Shown piece by piece: positions 10,312 through 19,097 of a DNA stretch of 32,000 bases. The notes beneath the pieces were generated by a model. That model was given only the letters and a program-made list of their open reading frames with translations, ran no database searches and was not told where the DNA came from. The position numbers and the translations under genes are program-made. This stretch comes from Candidatus Harpocratesius repetitus (lineage in GTDB: Archaea > Asgardarchaeota > Lokiarchaeia > Sigyniarchaeales > Promethearchaeaceae). The number at the start of each line of letters is the position of its first letter. The first letter of the stretch is position 1. The stretch is from assembly GCA_021498095.1 (NCBI GenBank), contig JAIZWK010000001.1, positions 4,226,768-4,258,767 on the forward strand, read 5' to 3'.

Positions 10312-11337
10312 ATGAATCTTTACAAATTGATAAAATCTAATTTAGAAAAAGAAAAAATCCTAGAATTTATTAAGAAAGAATTGGAAATTGGTTTTGATGT
10401 TAGGGCCGATATTAAGTATGCCTTAAGTTGTGCTGCTAAAAATGGACGTTTAGATGTGATTGAATTTTTGCTGGAGCGCAGTGCGGATGTTCATACCGAT
10501 ATAGATCGTGCCTTACAATTGGCTGTCGAATGGGGGGATTTAGATGTGGTTAAATTTTTGGTCGAAAATGGTGCGGATGTTCATGCCGATGATGATTATG
10601 CCTTAAGGCGTGCTGCTGAAGATGGGTGTTTGGAAATGGTTGAATTTTTGGTAGAAAGTGGTGCAGATATTCATGCCGATGATGATTATGCCTTAAGATA
10701 TGCTGCTAAAGGAGGGATTGTGGACGTGGTTAAATTTTTGGTCGAAAATGGTGCGGATATTCATGCCGATAATGATTATGCCTTAAGAATGGGCCTTTTT
10801 CATGAACATTGGAATATTGTTAAATTTTTGGTAGAAAGTGGTGCGGATATTCATGCCGATGATGATTATGCCTTAAGGCGTGCTGCTGAAGATGGGTGTT
10901 TGGAAATGGTTGAATTTTTGGTCGAAAATGGTGCGGATATTCATGCCGATAATGATTATGCCTTAAGGCGAGCTGCTAAAGGAGGGAATGTGGACGTGGT
11001 TAAATTTTTGGTCGAAAATGGTGCGGATATTCATGCCGATAATGATTATGCCTTAAGAATGGGCGTTTTTCTTGAACATTGGAATATGGTTAAATTTTTG
11101 GTAGAAAGTGGTGCGGATATTCATGCCGATGATGATTATGCCCTAAAGTACACTGCCAAAGGATGGTATGTGGACGTGGCCATATTTTTGGTCGAAAATG
11201 GTGCAGATATTAGTGCAATAAAAGAATATAAAGCAATCCTCAGTCAGCTTCGCAAAATATTCGAAAATAAGGGTGATCACAGCAATTTATTAGAAAAAAT
11301 CAACCAATATTTAAAAATTAATAAAATTATCCTTTAA
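10312..11337 (+). CDS. Ankyrin-repeat protein with short 30-aa repeats
   Basis: About 9 repeats of the type ADIHADDDYALRxAAxxGxxxVVKFLVExG on a 90-bp period; intact ORF. Confidence 0.92.
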   Translation: MNLYKLIKSNLEKEKILEFIKKELEIGFDVRADIKYALSCAAKNGRLDVIEFLLERSADVHTDIDRALQLAVEWGDLDVVKFLVENGADVHADDDYALRRAAEDGCLEMVEFLVESGADIHADDDYALRYAAKGGIVDVVKFLVENGADIHADNDYALRMGLFHEHWNIVKFLVESGADIHADDDYALRRAAEDGCLEMVEFLVENGADIHADNDYALRRAAKGGNVDVVKFLVENGADIHADNDYALRMGVFLEHWNMVKFLVESGADIHADDDYALKYTAKGWYVDVAIFLVENGADISAIKEYKAILSQLRKIFENKGDHSNLLEKINQYLKINKIIL

Positions 11338-12689: not shown

Positions 12690-13526
12690 GTGAAGAAAAA
12701 ATTTGTATTAAGTGATCTTGATGGAACCTTATTAGACGAACCAAATGGATTAAGTTTTGAAAATTTGACTAGATTGAACAAATTAATTGATTCGGGTCTT
12801 CAGTTTTCCATTGCCACTGGTCGAGATCTAAAAAAGGCAAAAAAGGTCTTAGCTGGTGTACATTTAAAATATCCTGTAATATTAAATAATGGCGCTTTTT
12901 TAGGAAATTTAAAAACGGGTGAATTTTCTAAAATCACCACTATACCCCGAGAAATCTTTTCCACAATTTTTTCTTGGAGTGAAATGATAAAGTTAAAACC
13001 TATTGTTATGATTAGTTTTGACCAAATAAATAAGAAAGTTAAAATGGAAAAGGGGACATGGGGAAAAAAAGGTATTAAATATCTAACCCAAGATCAAATT
13101 GATAATTTAATTTCGCAAGATATTGTTAGTCTCCAATTTCATGCCCAAAAAGATGATCTTTTCCCTTTTTATCAAAAAATTCTGCAAGAATTTCCTGATC
13201 AAATAAAAATAGTATTTATCGAAGATGTTGGTTATAAAAAACTAAATATTAACGGAGAATGGTTTTGGTTAGAAATTAATGGCCCTAAAGCGGGAAAAGG
13301 AAACATGATGAAAGAATTAGCCATGATGTTCCAATACAAACTTGAAGATTTTGTTGTATTTGGGGATAATATTAATGATCTTGAACTTATGCAAATGGCA
13401 GGACTTAGTGTGGCTGTTGAAGATGCACAACCTGAAATAAAGGAAATTGCAGATGTCATTACTGAAAGCTCAAACAATATGGGTGTGGTTAAATTTATCG
13501 AAAAAAATATTGATGAATTTATTTAG
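12690..13526 (+). CDS. Cof-type HAD-IIB hydrolase
   Basis: DLDGTLL, ATGR, GKG and GDNINDLELM; GTG at 12690 preferred as start. Confidence 0.9.
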   Translation: MKKKFVLSDLDGTLLDEPNGLSFENLTRLNKLIDSGLQFSIATGRDLKKAKKVLAGVHLKYPVILNNGAFLGNLKTGEFSKITTIPREIFSTIFSWSEMIKLKPIVMISFDQINKKVKMEKGTWGKKGIKYLTQDQIDNLISQDIVSLQFHAQKDDLFPFYQKILQEFPDQIKIVFIEDVGYKKLNINGEWFWLEINGPKAGKGNMMKELAMMFQYKLEDFVVFGDNINDLELMQMAGLSVAVEDAQPEIKEIADVITESSNNMGVVKFIEKNIDEFI

Positions 13527-15015
13527 CTTCTTTTGTTGATTCAATTATTTTTTCAGAAAAATTATCTGGGCTACGCAATCGAGCTAAAATATCATCTAAA
13601 CTCTCACCTTCAATTTCTAATGCGATAGTTTTACCATCTGTTTGAACTTTCACAGGAGAATCATCAATATCTGTAATCTTTGGAATATTCCTAACAGATA
13701 TTTTCATATTTTTTGAAATGAGTTTTTCAATTATTTCTTCACCTGATAAATTCCCAATTTCTTGAATTGGAATTGAGTTCAATTCTTCATCAAATTCTTC
13801 ACCGGAAAGAATTCCGCGATACAACAACCCTTGTTGATGAATTTTTTTCTTAATTTCATCAGATGTAAGATCACCACCTACTTTCCCTTCAGATATTTCT
13901 CCCAATCCGTGCATAAGTTCTTGTAAATCAGAAATGATTTCTTCACTTATTTCAGAATTCTTCAATAATAGTATTTCTTGTTCCATTATTCGCGCTTTTT
14001 TAATACGTTCTTCAATATTTGGAATCTGAGCTAAAATTTCAAGTTGTTTACGTCTTTCATTTAAAAGAGATTCTCGTTCTTGCTGCTTAGCAATTTTGAT
14101 TTCGTCATAATGATCTTTAAAATATGTAATACTATAATTAATTAAATCTGCGACATCTCTCCATTCATTTTTTTGAACAAGACTTTCAATCCATAAAAGT
14201 AAATGACGCTTTATTGGAACAGTAATGAGTTTATGGTCGCGAGATACATGTTTTTCAGTATCAGGTGGTTCTAGCAGCCATTTAAAGATATTTGCAATAA
14301 AATCTTGGTTATTTAGGGCAAAAAAACCATATGCAGAAGAAAGAGAAGAGAGCATGGATACAGTAGGTAGTCCAATCACACGACCTTTATAGACTTTAGA
14401 GTAAATTGCCATAATTGATTTCCAGGCATCAACATCTTCAACCCATTCACCATCTATCCATTCAGTACTATAAGCATTAATACTTGATCGTGCTAGAGGT
14501 ATTACGTCTATATTTAGATCAGCAGCGATTAACTGATCGATTTCAATTGAACAAGCACTCGATAGTACAATAGAAGATATATTCCGGGTTGTTGGATGAG
14601 GCTCAAAATCACTGATAATTACTCTCGATTCTTGTCTTTGAAAGTGAACTGAATCATATATAATATTATTTTTATATTTAAAACCAAAAAATTGAGTTAA
14701 TTCTGATAAATTTGAATCTGTTCCAAAATCTCCACCTTCATCATGGAAAATTAATAGATTACCACCTTTACGAACGTACTCTACTAATACTTTTATCTCA
14801 TCTGAACTAAATTTCGATTCCCTAGGTCCACCAATAACCACTAATCGATATTTCTTTAATTTCTTAATATTTGTAAAACCTGCTTGAATTTTTCCTAATC
14901 TAAAGGATGAAGAAAAGAGAAATTGAGTAAAATCTGCATTACTGGGAGATTCAATGGTTAAAGTATTTTGATGGCTGTAATCAAAGCATATCGTATTTTC
15001 TAAAATATTAGGCAT
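13519..15015 (-). CDS. GIFT (GldG/IFT52-like, DUF4350-related) domain plus ribbon-helix-helix-like segment and coiled coil
   Basis: LVVIGGPRESKFSSDEIKVLVEYVRKGGNLLIFHDEGG...SNLSEL...NIFKWLL, then an RHH-like ITVPIKRHLLLWIESLVQKNEWRDVADLINYSI and a charged helical tail. Confidence 0.7.
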   Translation of the reverse strand: MPNILENTICFDYSHQNTLTIESPSNADFTQFLFSSSFRLGKIQAGFTNIKKLKKYRLVVIGGPRESKFSSDEIKVLVEYVRKGGNLLIFHDEGGDFGTDSNLSELTQFFGFKYKNNIIYDSVHFQRQESRVIISDFEPHPTTRNISSIVLSSACSIEIDQLIAADLNIDVIPLARSSINAYSTEWIDGEWVEDVDAWKSIMAIYSKVYKGRVIGLPTVSMLSSLSSAYGFFALNNQDFIANIFKWLLEPPDTEKHVSRDHKLITVPIKRHLLLWIESLVQKNEWRDVADLINYSITYFKDHYDEIKIAKQQERESLLNERRKQLEILAQIPNIEERIKKARIMEQEILLLKNSEISEEIISDLQELMHGLGEISEGKVGGDLTSDEIKKKIHQQGLLYRGILSGEEFDEELNSIPIQEIGNLSGEEIIEKLISKNMKISVRNIPKITDIDDSPVKVQTDGKTIALEIEGESLDDILARLRSPDNFSEKIIESTKEAK

Positions 15016-15109
15016 AGTGGTAATAATCACTTCTATTATTATGCTAAATTATTTATCTTTTTTGAAGCTAAAATAGCTTTCTAATTATCAAAGGATCATT
15101 TTATTATCT

Positions 15110-15663: not shown

Positions 15664-17202
15664 TTAAATATTATTATAAAAATCTGAAAGTCTTTCTTTT
15701 TCTTTTTTCTTTCGCTCCTTTTCTTCTTCACTAAGATTATCATTTATATTTTCATTGAAAATCGGTTTATCCGTCGTTGGCGGTGCAAATGGTTTTGGTT
15801 CAGTAGTTGGCGGTGCAAATGGTTTTGGTTCAGTAGTTGGCGGTGCAAATGGTTTTGGTTCAGTAGTTGGCGGTGCAAATGGTTTTGGTTCAGTAGTTGG
15901 CGGTGCGAATGGTTTTGGTTCAGTAGTTGGCGGTGCGAATGGTTTTGGTTCAGTAGTTGGCGGTGCAAATGGTTTTGGTTCAGTAGTTGGCGGTGCAAAT
16001 GGTTTTGGTTCAGTAGTTGGCGGTGCAAATGGTTTTGGTTCAGTAGATGGCGGTGCGAATGGTTTTGGTTCCGTAGTTGGCGGTGCAAATGGTTTTGGTT
16101 CCGTAGTTGGCGGTGCGAATGGTTTTGGTTCCGTAGTTGGCGGTGCGAATGGTTTTGGTTCCGTAGTTGGCGGTGCAAATGGTTTTGGTTCAATAGTTGG
16201 CGGTGCGAATGGTTTTGGTTCAGTAGTTGGCGGTGCAAATGGTTTTGGTTCAGTAGTTGGCGGTGCAAATGGTTTTGGTTCAGTAGTTGGCGGTGCAAAT
16301 GGTTTTGGTTCAGTAGTTGGCGGTGCAAATGGTTTTGGTTCAGTAGTTGGCGGTGCGAATGGTTTTGGTTCAGTAGTTGGCGGTGCAAATGGTTTTGGTT
16401 CAGTAGTTGGCGGTGCAAATGGTTTTGGTTCAGTAGTTGGCGGTGCAAATGGTTTTGGTTCAGTAGTTGGCGGTGCGAATGGTTTTGGTTCAGTAGTTGG
16501 CGGTGCAAATGGTTTTGGTTCAGTAGTTGGCGGTGCGAATGGTTTTGGTTCAGTAGTTGGCGGTGCGAATGGTTTTGGTTCAGTAGTTGGCGGTGCAAAT
16601 GGTTTTGGTTCTGAAATTTCAGATTCTACTTTATTAATTTCATCTTTATTAGGAGGTAGTTTTACACCATTTATCTCTAAAACTCGTCGAAATATCATAT
16701 CAAATGCCTTTTTTACTCCTGTTCCATCTTTTGATGAAATTTTTATATGATCAAACATATTCAAAGGTTCTAAAAATTCTTTAGCATATTCATCACTAAC
16801 AGTTATATCTTCAACGCGGTCAAGTTTTGTACCAACAAATAAAATCGGAAGATTTGGATCTTGTTTTCTAATAATATTTACCCATTCTTCTAATCCATCT
16901 AAAGTTCGAAGTCTTGTTAAATCATATAATAAAAGTGCACCCCGTGCACCAGCAACATAAGAATCTAGCATAAATCGAAATCTCTCTTGCCCACCAAAAT
17001 CCCATAGTTGTCCCACAACTTCTACAGAATCTGGATGACCAGGTGGACCAATTGTTGAATTAAGAAGATGAAACTCAACGCCAATTGTCATTGCGGTCTG
17101 TTCTTGAAATTTACCTGTTACGGCACGAGTTAACAGTGTAGTTTTTCCTACACCACCTTGCCCTGCCACGAGGATTTTGAATACGTATTTCTTTTTTTTC
17201 AT
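15664..17202 (-). CDS. Rab-like small GTPase with a 280-aa proline-rich tandem-repeat tail
   Basis: G1 GQGGVGKT, switch I TIGVEF, G3 WDFGGQERFR, GARGALLLYDLT, G4 TKLD, G5 SSK. Start is ATG 17202 (512 aa). No C-terminal Cys. Confidence 0.92.
   Translation of the reverse strand: MKKKKYVFKILVAGQGGVGKTTLLTRAVTGKFQEQTAMTIGVEFHLLNSTIGPPGHPDSVEVVGQLWDFGGQERFRFMLDSYVAGARGALLLYDLTRLRTLDGLEEWVNIIRKQDPNLPILFVGTKLDRVEDITVSDEYAKEFLEPLNMFDHIKISSKDGTGVKKAFDMIFRRVLEINGVKLPPNKDEINKVESEISEPKPFAPPTTEPKPFAPPTTEPKPFAPPTTEPKPFAPPTTEPKPFAPPTTEPKPFAPPTTEPKPFAPPTTEPKPFAPPTTEPKPFAPPTTEPKPFAPPTTEPKPFAPPTTEPKPFAPPTTEPKPFAPPTTEPKPFAPPTIEPKPFAPPTTEPKPFAPPTTEPKPFAPPTTEPKPFAPPTTEPKPFAPPSTEPKPFAPPTTEPKPFAPPTTEPKPFAPPTTEPKPFAPPTTEPKPFAPPTTEPKPFAPPTTEPKPFAPPTTEPKPFAPPTTEPKPFAPPTTDKPIFNENINDNLSEEEKERKKKEKERLSDFYNNI
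15772..16611 (-). repeat. 28 x 30-bp coding tandem repeat (EPKPFAPPTT)
   Basis: Unit GAACCAAAACCATTTGCACCGCCAACTACT on the minus strand. Variants are mostly synonymous (TTT/TTC, ACT/ACG), with one PTI unit and one PST unit. Confidence 0.97.
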
Positions 17203-17952
17203 GAGGGAGCGTCCGTCCTTGTGACTGAATTTTGGATCAGAGAGTTTGAATGTTCTCAAATCTAAGTATAATAATATTATATAGAATGCTGATGATATAA
17301 TAAAATTTTGTTTTTGGATAGGTGTAATTTCTTTGGAAAAACAAAAGACTTTTTCAAAGAGCAAAATACATTTCCGAAAAAAGCTTTTGACGGAAAAAAG
17401 AACCTAAGGAATTTAACTTAGATATTAATTTTTACCAAACACTTGAATTTTCCAATTATTAACGGATGTTGAAAATATTTTAGAAACACAATCCAGTGTT
17501 AGCCCGATTATAGTTAATGATCAATGATTTTCACACAAGGACTATTAGTATTTATTATTTAAATAAATAATTTCGAAATATTAAAAATTTAATCAAAAAT
17601 CAAATTTATCATCATTCATCCTATTTCTATATTTCGTTAGCTCAATAATTGGCATCCCGATCTTTTAGATTATAAAACGAATATAATCAAATCAGAGAAT
17701 AAAATTTAATTAATGCAGGTGAAAAAATTGAATAAAAAATCAGAACTTTCCAATAAATTACGTTGCCATATGTTGGAACCATCATTCTATTTTAAAGTAT
17801 TATAGAATATTCAACTCAATAAATTGATGAATAAAAAACCAGTAAAAAAATTGAATATAAAAAAAAACTTTACTCGACGCACCCTTTTTTTTCACAATTA
17901 ATTTCCTTCCTTCATACAATCCTTCATAGAAATATCAACTCTTAAACCCCTC

Positions 17953-17986
17953 GGAAAGCTATCTGGCCTCCAACAGATAGCTTTCC
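17953..17986 (+). terminator. Perfect 13-bp-stem hairpin followed by a T-rich tract (terminator-like or structured element)
   Basis: GGAAAGCTATCTG-gcctccaa-CAGATAGCTTTCC, then actctttttgtttg. Confidence 0.45.
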
Positions 17987-18122
17987 ACTCTTTTTGTTTG
18001 CTATAGAGTATTTTTGCAAAATCATTCTGAAAATGGAAAAAGTAAATAGAAAATGTAAATATTTTAGGGATTCTTGCATTTTACTTATCCAGTAATTTGT
18101 TATCTAACTATATAGTAAAAGA

Positions 18123-19097
18123 ATGAGAATAATGGGACACAATTTTAATGAAGTTCATAATCGTAAAGACACCGATTCAATTAAATGGAATCCGAAATTA
18201 TTGGAAGAATGGTTCCATGTTAAAGATGTTCTACCCTTGTGGGTGGCAGATATGGATTTTCGCGCACATGAATCAATTATTAAAGCTATAAAAGATCGGG
18301 CTGAACATGGCATTTTTGGTTATTGTTTTGCTGATGATAGTTATTATCACTCCGTTATAAATTGGTTTGATCAAAACCATAATTGGAAAATTAAAAAAAA
18401 TTGGATAGTAATCATTCCTGGAGTTGTCCCTGCTATAAATATGCTGATTCAAGCTTTTTCTCGACCGGGAGATCAGATTATAATCCAAGAACCTGTTTAC
18501 TATCCTTTCAAAGAAGGAATTCTCGCTAATGGGCGTCGACCTTTAAAATTGTTAATGGTCGATATGAGATGGATTTTGAAGATTTAGAAAAGAAAATTCA
18601 AAAAAAGCGCGTCAAAATGCTAATTTTATGTTCACCTCACAATCCTGTTGGACGTGTTTGGAGTAGAGAGAAATGAATTCAAAACGACCTTGCAAGCTTT
18701 GGGATTATCAGTAGGTGCTAATATTTTTGGAATGCTTGCTATAAAGACAGCATATAATAAAGGAAAAGACTGGTTAAAAGATGTTCTTAATTATATTTAT
18801 CAAAATTATCTCTTTTTAAAGCAAGATCTCTCACAATATTTGCCGGAAGCCATTGTATTTCCTTTAGAAGGAACTTATTTAGCTTGGGTCGATTTCCATT
18901 CCTTAGGTATTACTTCAAAAGAATTGGATCTTCTTCTTAAGCATCAAGCTAAAGTATTACTTGATGACGGTGGGATGTTTGGAGAATGTAGCCAAGGATT
19001 TCAGCGTTTTAATATTGCATGCCCACGTAAAGTTTTAGAAGAGACTTTAAATAGAATAGTTAATGCAGCTAGCATCTATATTCAAGAAAATCATTAG
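18123..19097 (+). pseudogene. patB: PatB/MalY-family PLP-dependent cystathionine beta-lyase pseudogene
   Basis: SIKW, LPLWVADMDF, GIFGY, PVYYPF; frameshift near 18545; [15 protein letters not shown] joined directly to NEFKTTL, so the SDEIH and SKTFN segments are missing; C-terminal EGTYLAWVDF and QRFNIACP. Confidence 0.85.

Follow-up and report, generated by a model that had tools for sequence, protein, structure and literature searches.

We analysed a 32,000-nucleotide window of the chromosome of Candidatus Harpocratesius repetitus (contig JAIZWK010000001.1, positions 4,226,768 to 4,258,767), which encodes on its minus strand a 512-amino-acid Rab-like GTPase. The protein is built of four parts: a G domain, 28 tandem EPKPFAPPTT units, a lysine/glutamate-rich (K/E) segment and a C-terminal tip, LSDFYNNI. 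We found that the gene and its repeat are real, that the tail was gained once within one sub-clade of the orthologues, that the tip is conserved, that the repeat array is young, and that the gene is followed in a conserved pair by a gene for a PIN-domain nuclease. The explanation that we favour, with about as much doubt as confidence, is that the protein is a functional Rab-like GTP switch carrying a disordered tether that ends in a protein-docking motif. The GTPase is thus an Asgard Rab-like protein with a derived, lipid-free tail, for which docking is the function we infer.

The G domain, the repeat array and the origin of the tail

The genome is a closed single-contig chromosome of 4,361,485 bp with 31% GC. 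By protein matches, which are labelled Promethearchaeota, its nearest named relative is Lokiarchaeum ossiferum, which places the organism among the Loki-type Asgard archaea. The GTPase gene occupies positions 15664-17202 of the window, with an ATG at 17202 and a TAA stop at 15664-15666. A longer frame from a TTG at 17364 is unnecessary, because the N-terminus MKKKKYVFK is the same as the starts of the orthologues (MKKKKYVFK or MGKKKYVFK).

Residues 9-175 match Pfam Ras (PF00071) at 2.6e-32, with 112.1 bits against a cut-off of 21.6, and the G domain also matches Pfam Roc (1.3e-24) and TIGR00231 small_GTP (2e-21). Of the PDB matches listed, the best 60 are Rabs without exception, RabA1a, Rab11, Rab14, Rab25, Rab1, Rab43, Ypt1 and Ypt6 among them, with RabA1a and Rab11 in the lead (about 1e-28 to 1e-25; top 7.5e-28). 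G1 is GQGGVGKT (residues 14-21), T39 of switch I lies within IGVEF, G3 is DFGGQ (68-72) and holds the catalytic Gln72, G4 is TKLD (125-128) and G5 is SSK (156-158). The RabF1-F5 motifs read IGVDF, KLQIWDTAGQE, RFRSIT, YYRGA and LVYDIT; the equivalent stretches of the GTPase are IGVEF, VGQLWDFGGQE, RFRFML, YVAGA and LLYDLT, of which F1 and F5 are close and F2-F4 partial. In an alignment of 20 orthologues some 60% of the columns in the G domain do not vary, and an AlphaFold2 (AF2) model of a 91%-identical orthologue, P0002, has a Ras-like alpha/beta fold in this domain. Judged by its motifs and profile matches, the protein is a Ras-superfamily small GTPase with all five G motifs intact, and its closest relatives among the solved structures listed are Rabs, not Ras, Rho, Arf or Ran.

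The G domain is followed by the repeat array. Tandem Repeats Finder (TRF) reports a period of 30, 27.9 copies, 97% matches and a score of 1560, and a unit parse gives exactly 28 EPKPFAPPTT units (residues 198-477) consisting of 40% Pro and 19% Thr with one Phe per unit. At the DNA level seven variants of the unit can be told apart, which follow one another aperiodically as ABBABAAABAAAAECDDCFAAABBAAAG; the longest stretch that recurs exactly inside the array measures 179 nt. This order and this repeat length, on a closed contig, make the array sequence look resolved and speak against an assembler loop or an extrapolation. The variation between units consists of three synonymous third-position sites and two singleton replacements (T to I and T to S), and since it is mostly synonymous the repeat peptide appears to be under purifying selection in the GTPase frame. 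Two further open reading frames (ORFs) over the array, of 331 aa on the plus strand and 284 aa on the minus strand, were set aside as shadows of the repeat; orthologues were found only for the frame joined to the G domain.

We found that the linker of the GTPase, at 306 aa, is by far the longest, the other tailed orthologues having 76-209 aa. In two relatives of the same genus the linker measures ~86-113 aa and holds ~4-6 degenerate units with a common EPKPF core. By this comparison the 28-copy array is a recent, lineage-specific amplification. A first-pass annotation, made by a model from the letters of the window, had read the near-identical units as a recent expansion, in agreement with the short linkers of the congeners; the intact Rab-like G domain that it described is likewise confirmed by the Pfam Ras match, the G1-G5 motifs and the Rab-only PDB matches listed, and its coordinates for the gene are exact. 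The copy number of 28 is that of the assembly. A 301-nt inner part of the array is matched in read sets X1 and X2, which probably derive from the source sample, and for a small share in one marine-sediment run, as 31-60-nt unitigs that are too short to give copy number or to span the array; no RNA data sets are listed among the read sets matching this part. Short-read metagenome-assembled genomes (MAGs) of relatives break within their own arrays, with an N-run in L016 (G002) and contig ends or frame loss in L019 (G007) and L021 (G013), and tail lengths taken from such MAGs are therefore lower bounds. The 28-copy array is likely a length-variable locus and a possible strain marker.

Twenty public proteins, 54-91% identical where they align, have the same architecture; they include L. 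ossiferum NEF87_003621 (417 aa) and a clade on contigs labelled Prometheoarchaeum. Of 40 genomes of relatives, 28 carry an orthologue (E<=1e-60). In a sample of the phylum (E<=1e-55) the orthogroup is confined to two families of one order, f1 and f3, where 56 of 59 genomes carry it, and it was found in none of the other 191 genomes sampled. With at least 55% G-domain identity and a same-strand PIN gene next downstream taken as its marks, the orthogroup includes the GTPase; identity across f1 and f3 is 56-91%. An extension of conserved design occurs in three genera. The orthologues of three genera of the same family (g2, g3 and g7) and of all of f3 are 171-191 aa long and end directly after helix alpha5. 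In a maximum-likelihood tree of the G domain the 16 tailed proteins, NEF87_003621 of L. ossiferum among them, form one clade (support 96/97) nested among the tail-less orthologues. This nesting indicates that the tail was gained once, late, and then kept. A single late gain inside one archaeal family also means that the tail is not homologous to the hypervariable region of eukaryotic Rabs, and the first-pass description of an expanded hypervariable region therefore fails as a statement of homology, with tail-less orthologues surrounding the one tailed clade. The orthogroup is a natural experiment: tailed and tail-less orthologues occur in sister genera, and for two of these genera cultured members probably exist.

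Within the genome itself the G domain has 37 matches. A Pro-rich repeat tail of the EPKPFAPPTT type was seen in one of the 33 matches inspected, namely the GTPase, and a genome-wide search for PKPFAPP or the strict tip pattern found no gene besides it.

The conserved tip and readings of the tail

The tails of the orthologues differ in sequence and agree in design. Linkers measure 76-306 aa with 20-39% Pro and are Ser/Thr-rich, and in most tailed orthologues the median unit spacing is ~9-16 residues. The units themselves differ: EPKPFAPPTT, TPEPKPFTPTPTP, PSPAPFSAPST, EPPTIPTPVS and SQPPFIPPT are examples, and in the Prometheoarchaeum-type clade, with its EPPTIPTPVS units, Phe is scarce or absent. 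Amid its prolines, every unit of every orthologue keeps a hydrophobic residue, which is F, Y, I or V. The linker leads into a mixed-charge K/E segment of ~20-25 residues, and the 28 residues before the tip hold 13-22 charged residues with a net charge of about +1 to -6 in the 22 motif-bearing orthologues. The tail of the GTPase ends ...EEEKERKKKEKERLSDFYNNI. Its tip fits a motif that 22 of 23 tailed orthologues share: [L/F]-x-x-[F/Y]-[F/Y], then 1-6 polar residues up to the C-terminus. The same 22 keep the whole design of linker, K/E segment and tip; outside the motif no alignment of the tail is possible. In the AF2 model of P0002, computed with the orthologue alignment, residues 181-274 have no secondary structure, and the K/E segment and tip (275-291) are predicted as one helix with a predicted local distance difference test (pLDDT) score of ~70. 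We found neither Cys nor a transmembrane segment in the tail of the GTPase, and no Cys near the ends of its orthologues. The conserved-looking tip, the missing prenylation Cys and the long tether with a terminal peptide, all proposed in the first pass, are thus upheld by the orthologues, in which a variable linker goes with a kept tip.

We propose that the tip Leu and the two aromatic side chains would enter a hydrophobic pocket on the partner, on the model of PCNA-interacting-protein (PIP) boxes on PCNA and of ribosomal P-stalk tails on translational GTPases. The linker would set reach only, ~12 nm as a coil and up to ~90 nm fully extended by a rough chain-length estimate. The sequence and number of its units would be unconstrained and could shift through replication slippage, and it would recently have ballooned to 28 units. 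At the opposite end the G domain would read out GTP/GDP, probably together with the Fcf1/Utp24-like PIN nuclease. Candidate docking modes of the tip are PCNA-like, stalk-like (on translation GTPases) and intramolecular. The repeats may add weak multivalent contacts to the tether. A lipid-type anchor is unlikely, because there is no Cys, no transmembrane segment and no conserved positive charge.

The tip resembles the PIP boxes that the genome itself encodes. Canonical boxes close both Fen1 (QKTLSDFL) and RNase HII (QKKITDFS) at the C-terminus, and the tip KERLSDFY has the identical LSDF core of the Fen1 box. The Fen1 region (G000:C1:3942846-3943121) and RNase HII (1181693-1182298) provide the reference PCNA-binding motifs for the organism. 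The canonical pattern Q-x-x-[L/I/M]-x-x-[F/Y]-[F/Y] is not matched by the GTPase tip. A complex prediction of PCNA with the last 60 tail residues scored 0.02 against a mark of 0.32; controls were not run, and the score speaks neither for nor against binding. Since the bare core is short and common, the tip motif is meaningful only through its conservation in an otherwise unalignable tail. Other readings of the tip were dropped, namely the LC3-interacting region/Atg8-interacting motif (LIR/AIM), YxxPhi, the two-phenylalanines-in-an-acidic-tract (FFAT) motif and the hydrophobic-tyrosine-any-residue (HbYX) motif, the last of which requires a penultimate Tyr; their defining positions are unconserved among the orthologues.

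Several points weigh against a docking tip on a passive tether. The canonical PIP Gln is absent in all 22 motif-bearing orthologues, which have K, R, D or E instead, and the stalk comparison is also imperfect, the GTPase tip being F/Y-F/Y plus 1-6 residues where the stalk has L-F and a terminal Gly. A pattern as loose as [LIM]xx[FY][FYL] near the C-terminus occurs in 224 of 4765 long frames of the genome as compared with ~170 after shuffling. The tip is missing from one tailed metagenomic protein, P0007, whose last residues are PPFFG. The hydrophobic residue kept in each unit suggests that the linker is not a purely inert spacer. Tail-less orthologues keep the PIN neighbour, which means that the tail is not needed for the link between GTPase and nuclease. 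Docking of the tip on a protein, the identity of that protein and the coupling to the PIN nuclease are steps that we infer.

The kept hydrophobic residue bears on the idea of a multivalent docking array, in which the repeats would recruit proline-motif readers or drive condensate-like clustering and the tip would be secondary. Such an array is compatible with a tether, and we consider it unlikely as the main explanation. A Pro-embedded hydrophobic residue per ~10-aa unit in all orthologues is unneeded by an inert spacer, copy number has been strongly amplified to 28 units in the GTPase, and a second Lokiarchaeial Rab-like family has EFAAPPVPEP-type repeats, with 12 xPF motifs in the copy of the present genome. 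The motif itself, however, is unconserved: it is KPFAPP here, APFSAP in Lokiarchaeum and TIPTPV, with almost no aromatic, in the Prometheoarchaeum-type clade, and copies range from ~4 to 28, which implies that valency is unconstrained. Nor was a fitting proline-motif reader found. By eye, none of EVH1 (FPxPhiP), Homer (PPxxF), WW (PPxY), UEV (P[ST]AP) and profilin fits the units clade-wide. The KPF and PxxP unit of the first-pass annotation is weak as a conserved docking motif, since the Prometheoarchaeum-type clade with its EPPTIPTPVS units has little or no Phe. The first-pass suggestion of profilin as a candidate partner is disfavoured, since polyproline binding is reported to be lacking in Loki profilins (PMC8410842); Pfam Profilin gave no match in the genome, though a control shows that this search is uninformative.

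The predicted helix at the end of the tail could also serve as a lipid-free membrane anchor, with the K/E helix and aromatic tip forming an amphipathic helix that functionally replaces the prenylated Rab tail. The last 11 residues of the GTPase do have a hydrophobic moment of 0.63, with L/F/Y/I on one face (i, i+3, i+4, i+7) and KKKEKER before them, the helix is predicted by AF2, and Asgard Rab-like proteins, reported to have no prenyl-Cys (PMC10933270), would need other anchoring if they act on membranes. Across the orthologues this picture does not hold. Their 18-residue ends have a mean hydrophobicity of -0.26 to +0.09, a moment of 0.23-0.39 and a net charge of -3 to +3, the 28 residues ahead of the tip are net neutral to -6, and in Prometheoarchaeum-type proteins the tip is immediately preceded by prolines and an acidic run (KKPKKDPEED). 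Just three hydrophobic residues are conserved, followed by polar residues. The conserved positive charge, high moment and hydrophobic face of an amphipathic membrane helix are thus not found across the orthologues, and we regard a membrane anchor as distinctly improbable.

Finally, a largely neutral low-complexity expansion, in which the array is a slippage product, its length maybe miscalled by assembly, and the G domain alone matters, would suit the youth of the array (97% identity), a length so far beyond any relative's that no specific length seems required, and the breaks in the relatives' MAGs, which mark such arrays as hard to assemble, but it is very improbable with the tail kept in all 16 tail-clade members of the tree, the tip kept in 22 of 23 tailed orthologues, unit variation mostly synonymous, and an aperiodic variant order with a 179-nt longest exact repeat on a closed contig.

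The PIN_9 neighbour and the rest of the locus

The gene that follows the GTPase starts 11 nt after its stop on the same strand and matches Pfam PIN_9 at 1.1e-16. A profile of its orthologues has as best match 5yz4, 'rRNA-processing protein fcf1', at 1.3e-6, followed by Utp24/FCF1, and the acidic residues D13, E50, D112 and D150 are invariant or nearly so among the orthologues. No other PIN_9 gene occurs in the genome; the family itself is found in four of four archaeal control genomes. Among the 23 relatives' loci with a PIN hit, 19 have the tblastn match 11-62 nt past the GTPase stop on the same strand, and one further relative has it at 166 nt, across an assembly gap. The pairing was also found in four public contigs, and the order of GTPase then PIN is kept in tailed and tail-less lineages across two families of the order. 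In the present genome the pair is intact although eIF1A and Spt5 (genome positions 4358715-4359068 and 124-906) have moved ~115 kb away. The two genes are probably co-transcribed, and their conserved pairing suggests that they are tied in function to the processing of RNA or ribosomes, not to membrane traffic.

Downstream of the PIN gene sits a gene for a 503-aa IFT52/GIFT-like (GldG-like) protein (13519-15030, minus strand). We discarded it as a functional partner, because four of four public contigs lack it at this position: three carry eIF1A and then Spt5 there, and that of L. ossiferum a chemoreceptor. Since related contigs carry other genes here, the trio of GTPase, PIN and GIFT-like genes is specific to the present genome.

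On the other side of the GTPase, a gap of 0.9 kb (17203-18122) contains no ORF of at least 100 aa. Beyond it a class I/II aminotransferase (18123-19097, plus strand) lies in three pieces in frames 3/2/3, with about residues 182-257 missing relative to an intact 401-aa gene of a congener, and is likely a pseudogene by this comparison. A FAA-hydrolase gene is divergent upstream of the GTPase in four related contigs and is missing at this locus in the present genome. Elsewhere in the window, an ankyrin-repeat protein (10312-11337, plus strand) consists of 90-nt units, among which a higher-order duplication spans 270 nt (TRF 91%, 2.5 copies). The coordinates of the GTPase parts and of the PIN gene are collected in Table 1.

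Table 1. Parts of the GTPase and the adjacent nuclease gene, in positions of the 32,000-nt window
Feature	Position	Strand	Basis
Rab-like G domain, aa 1-180	16663..17202	-	Pfam, PDB profile matches, motifs
Non-repetitive lead-in VKLPPNKDEINKVESEIS, aa 181-197	16612..16662	-	Translation; equivalent in orthologue P0002 is coil, pLDDT <50
28 x 30-nt/10-aa EPKPFAPPTT units, aa 198-477	15772..16611	-	TRF and unit parse
Post-array spacer DKPIFNENINDNLS, aa 478-491	15730..15771	-	Translation; similar PKFINSEKNEENLT in same-genus P0002
Mixed-charge K/E segment EEEKERKKKEKER, aa 492-504, predicted helical	15691..15729	-	Orthologue comparison, AF2 of P0002
C-terminal tip LSDFYNNI, aa 505-512	15667..15690	-	Conserved motif among orthologues
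Fcf1/Utp24-like PIN_9 endonuclease, 180 aa	15110..15652	-	Pfam, orthologue profile

Comparison with known systems

Eukaryotic Rabs (Rab11, Rab1/Ypt1, Rab14) share with the GTPase the fold, the IGVEF, RFR and LLYDLT motifs and the catalytic Gln, with PDB matches listed at 1e-28 to 1e-22, and both have a variable C-terminal extension past helix alpha5. The eukaryotic tail is ~30-40 aa long, whereas that of the GTPase is 332 aa. The GTPase differs further in G3, which is WDFGGQ and not WDTAGQ, in G4, which is TKLD, and at its C-terminus, which has no Cys or prenylation box (CC, CXC, CAAX) and ends RLSDFYNNI.

REP and RabGGTase are reported as not found in Asgard archaea, and Asgard Rab-like proteins are described without a C-terminal extension and without prenyl-Cys (PMC10933270). 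The Asgard Rab-likes described so far (Thor-Rab, PDB 7EZB; MK-D1; Tran et al. 2024, PMC10933270) likewise have an archaeal Rab-like G domain, and the GTPase belongs to the same expanded set of paralogues as these. In contrast to their extension-free form, the present orthogroup has a long extension of conserved design. How dozens of Asgard Rab/Ras-like GTPases act without prenylation, and on what, bears on models of eukaryogenesis. The orthogroup offers a different solution, a late-acquired, lipid-free tail with a conserved, putative docking peptide at the end of a freely evolving proline-rich leash, and its conserved Fcf1/Utp24-like operon partner points away from membrane traffic. Naming the partner of the tip would give a cellular role to one member of the Asgard GTPase expansion.

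The genome encodes a second Rab-like paralogue, of WDTGGQ type (G000:C1:811967-813838, plus strand), whose disordered tail of 418 aa contains 12 xPF motifs and finishes in a Cys4 zinc ribbon. Repeats of EFAAPPVPEP type and long K/E runs are found in its relatives P0027-P0041, and the family is widespread among Lokiarchaeia. These proteins share with the GTPase the sequence of G domain, long Pro-rich repeats, K/E run and terminal module. They differ in being another paralogue family, with a zinc ribbon where the GTPase has an aromatic peptide, and in having no PIN neighbour.

Bacterial single-stranded DNA-binding protein (SSB) combines an OB fold, a Pro/Gly-rich disordered linker whose length differs from species to species, and an acidic tip, ...DDDIPF, that acts as a protein-interaction hub. 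The arrangement of a folded domain, a variable disordered linker and a conserved hydrophobic-ended tip is analogous to that of the GTPase; since fold, tip sequence and domain of life are unrelated, the likeness is one of analogy only. PIP-box proteins (Fen1, RNase HII, p21) have the same h-x-x-a-a core at the extreme C-terminus, from which the GTPase orthologues differ by the missing Gln and by a long mixed-charge run ahead of the motif. We know of no sliding-clamp link for any Rab-like GTPase.

The ribosomal P-stalk proteins (aP1, aP0, P1/P2) have the same layout as the GTPase, with a folded domain, a flexible hinge, a K/E-rich run and an L-x-x-hydrophobic-aromatic end. In the present genome aP1 and aP0 end with an A/P-rich hinge, a K/E run and LGALFG, the aP1 end being ...KKEEKKEEKPEEPAGLGALFG. 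Docking of aEF1A on the helical stalk tip is proven; in Pyrococcus aP1 the contacts are made by L103, L106 and F107 of LSALFG (PMC4267659). The two systems differ in that they have no sequence homology, the GTPase (P0001) giving no Ribosomal_60s Pfam match, and in that the GTPase linker is up to ~ten times longer and built of repeats. On sequence grounds, the likenesses to the PIP box and to the stalk are both short-motif resemblances, not homology. By analogy the tail could be a P-stalk mimic, leashing a Rab-like switch and an Fcf1/Utp24-like nuclease to translational GTPases or (pre-)ribosomes, a possibility to which we give only a slender chance. If it were true, one branch of the Asgard 'trafficking-type' GTPases would act in ribosome biogenesis or translation control and not on membranes.

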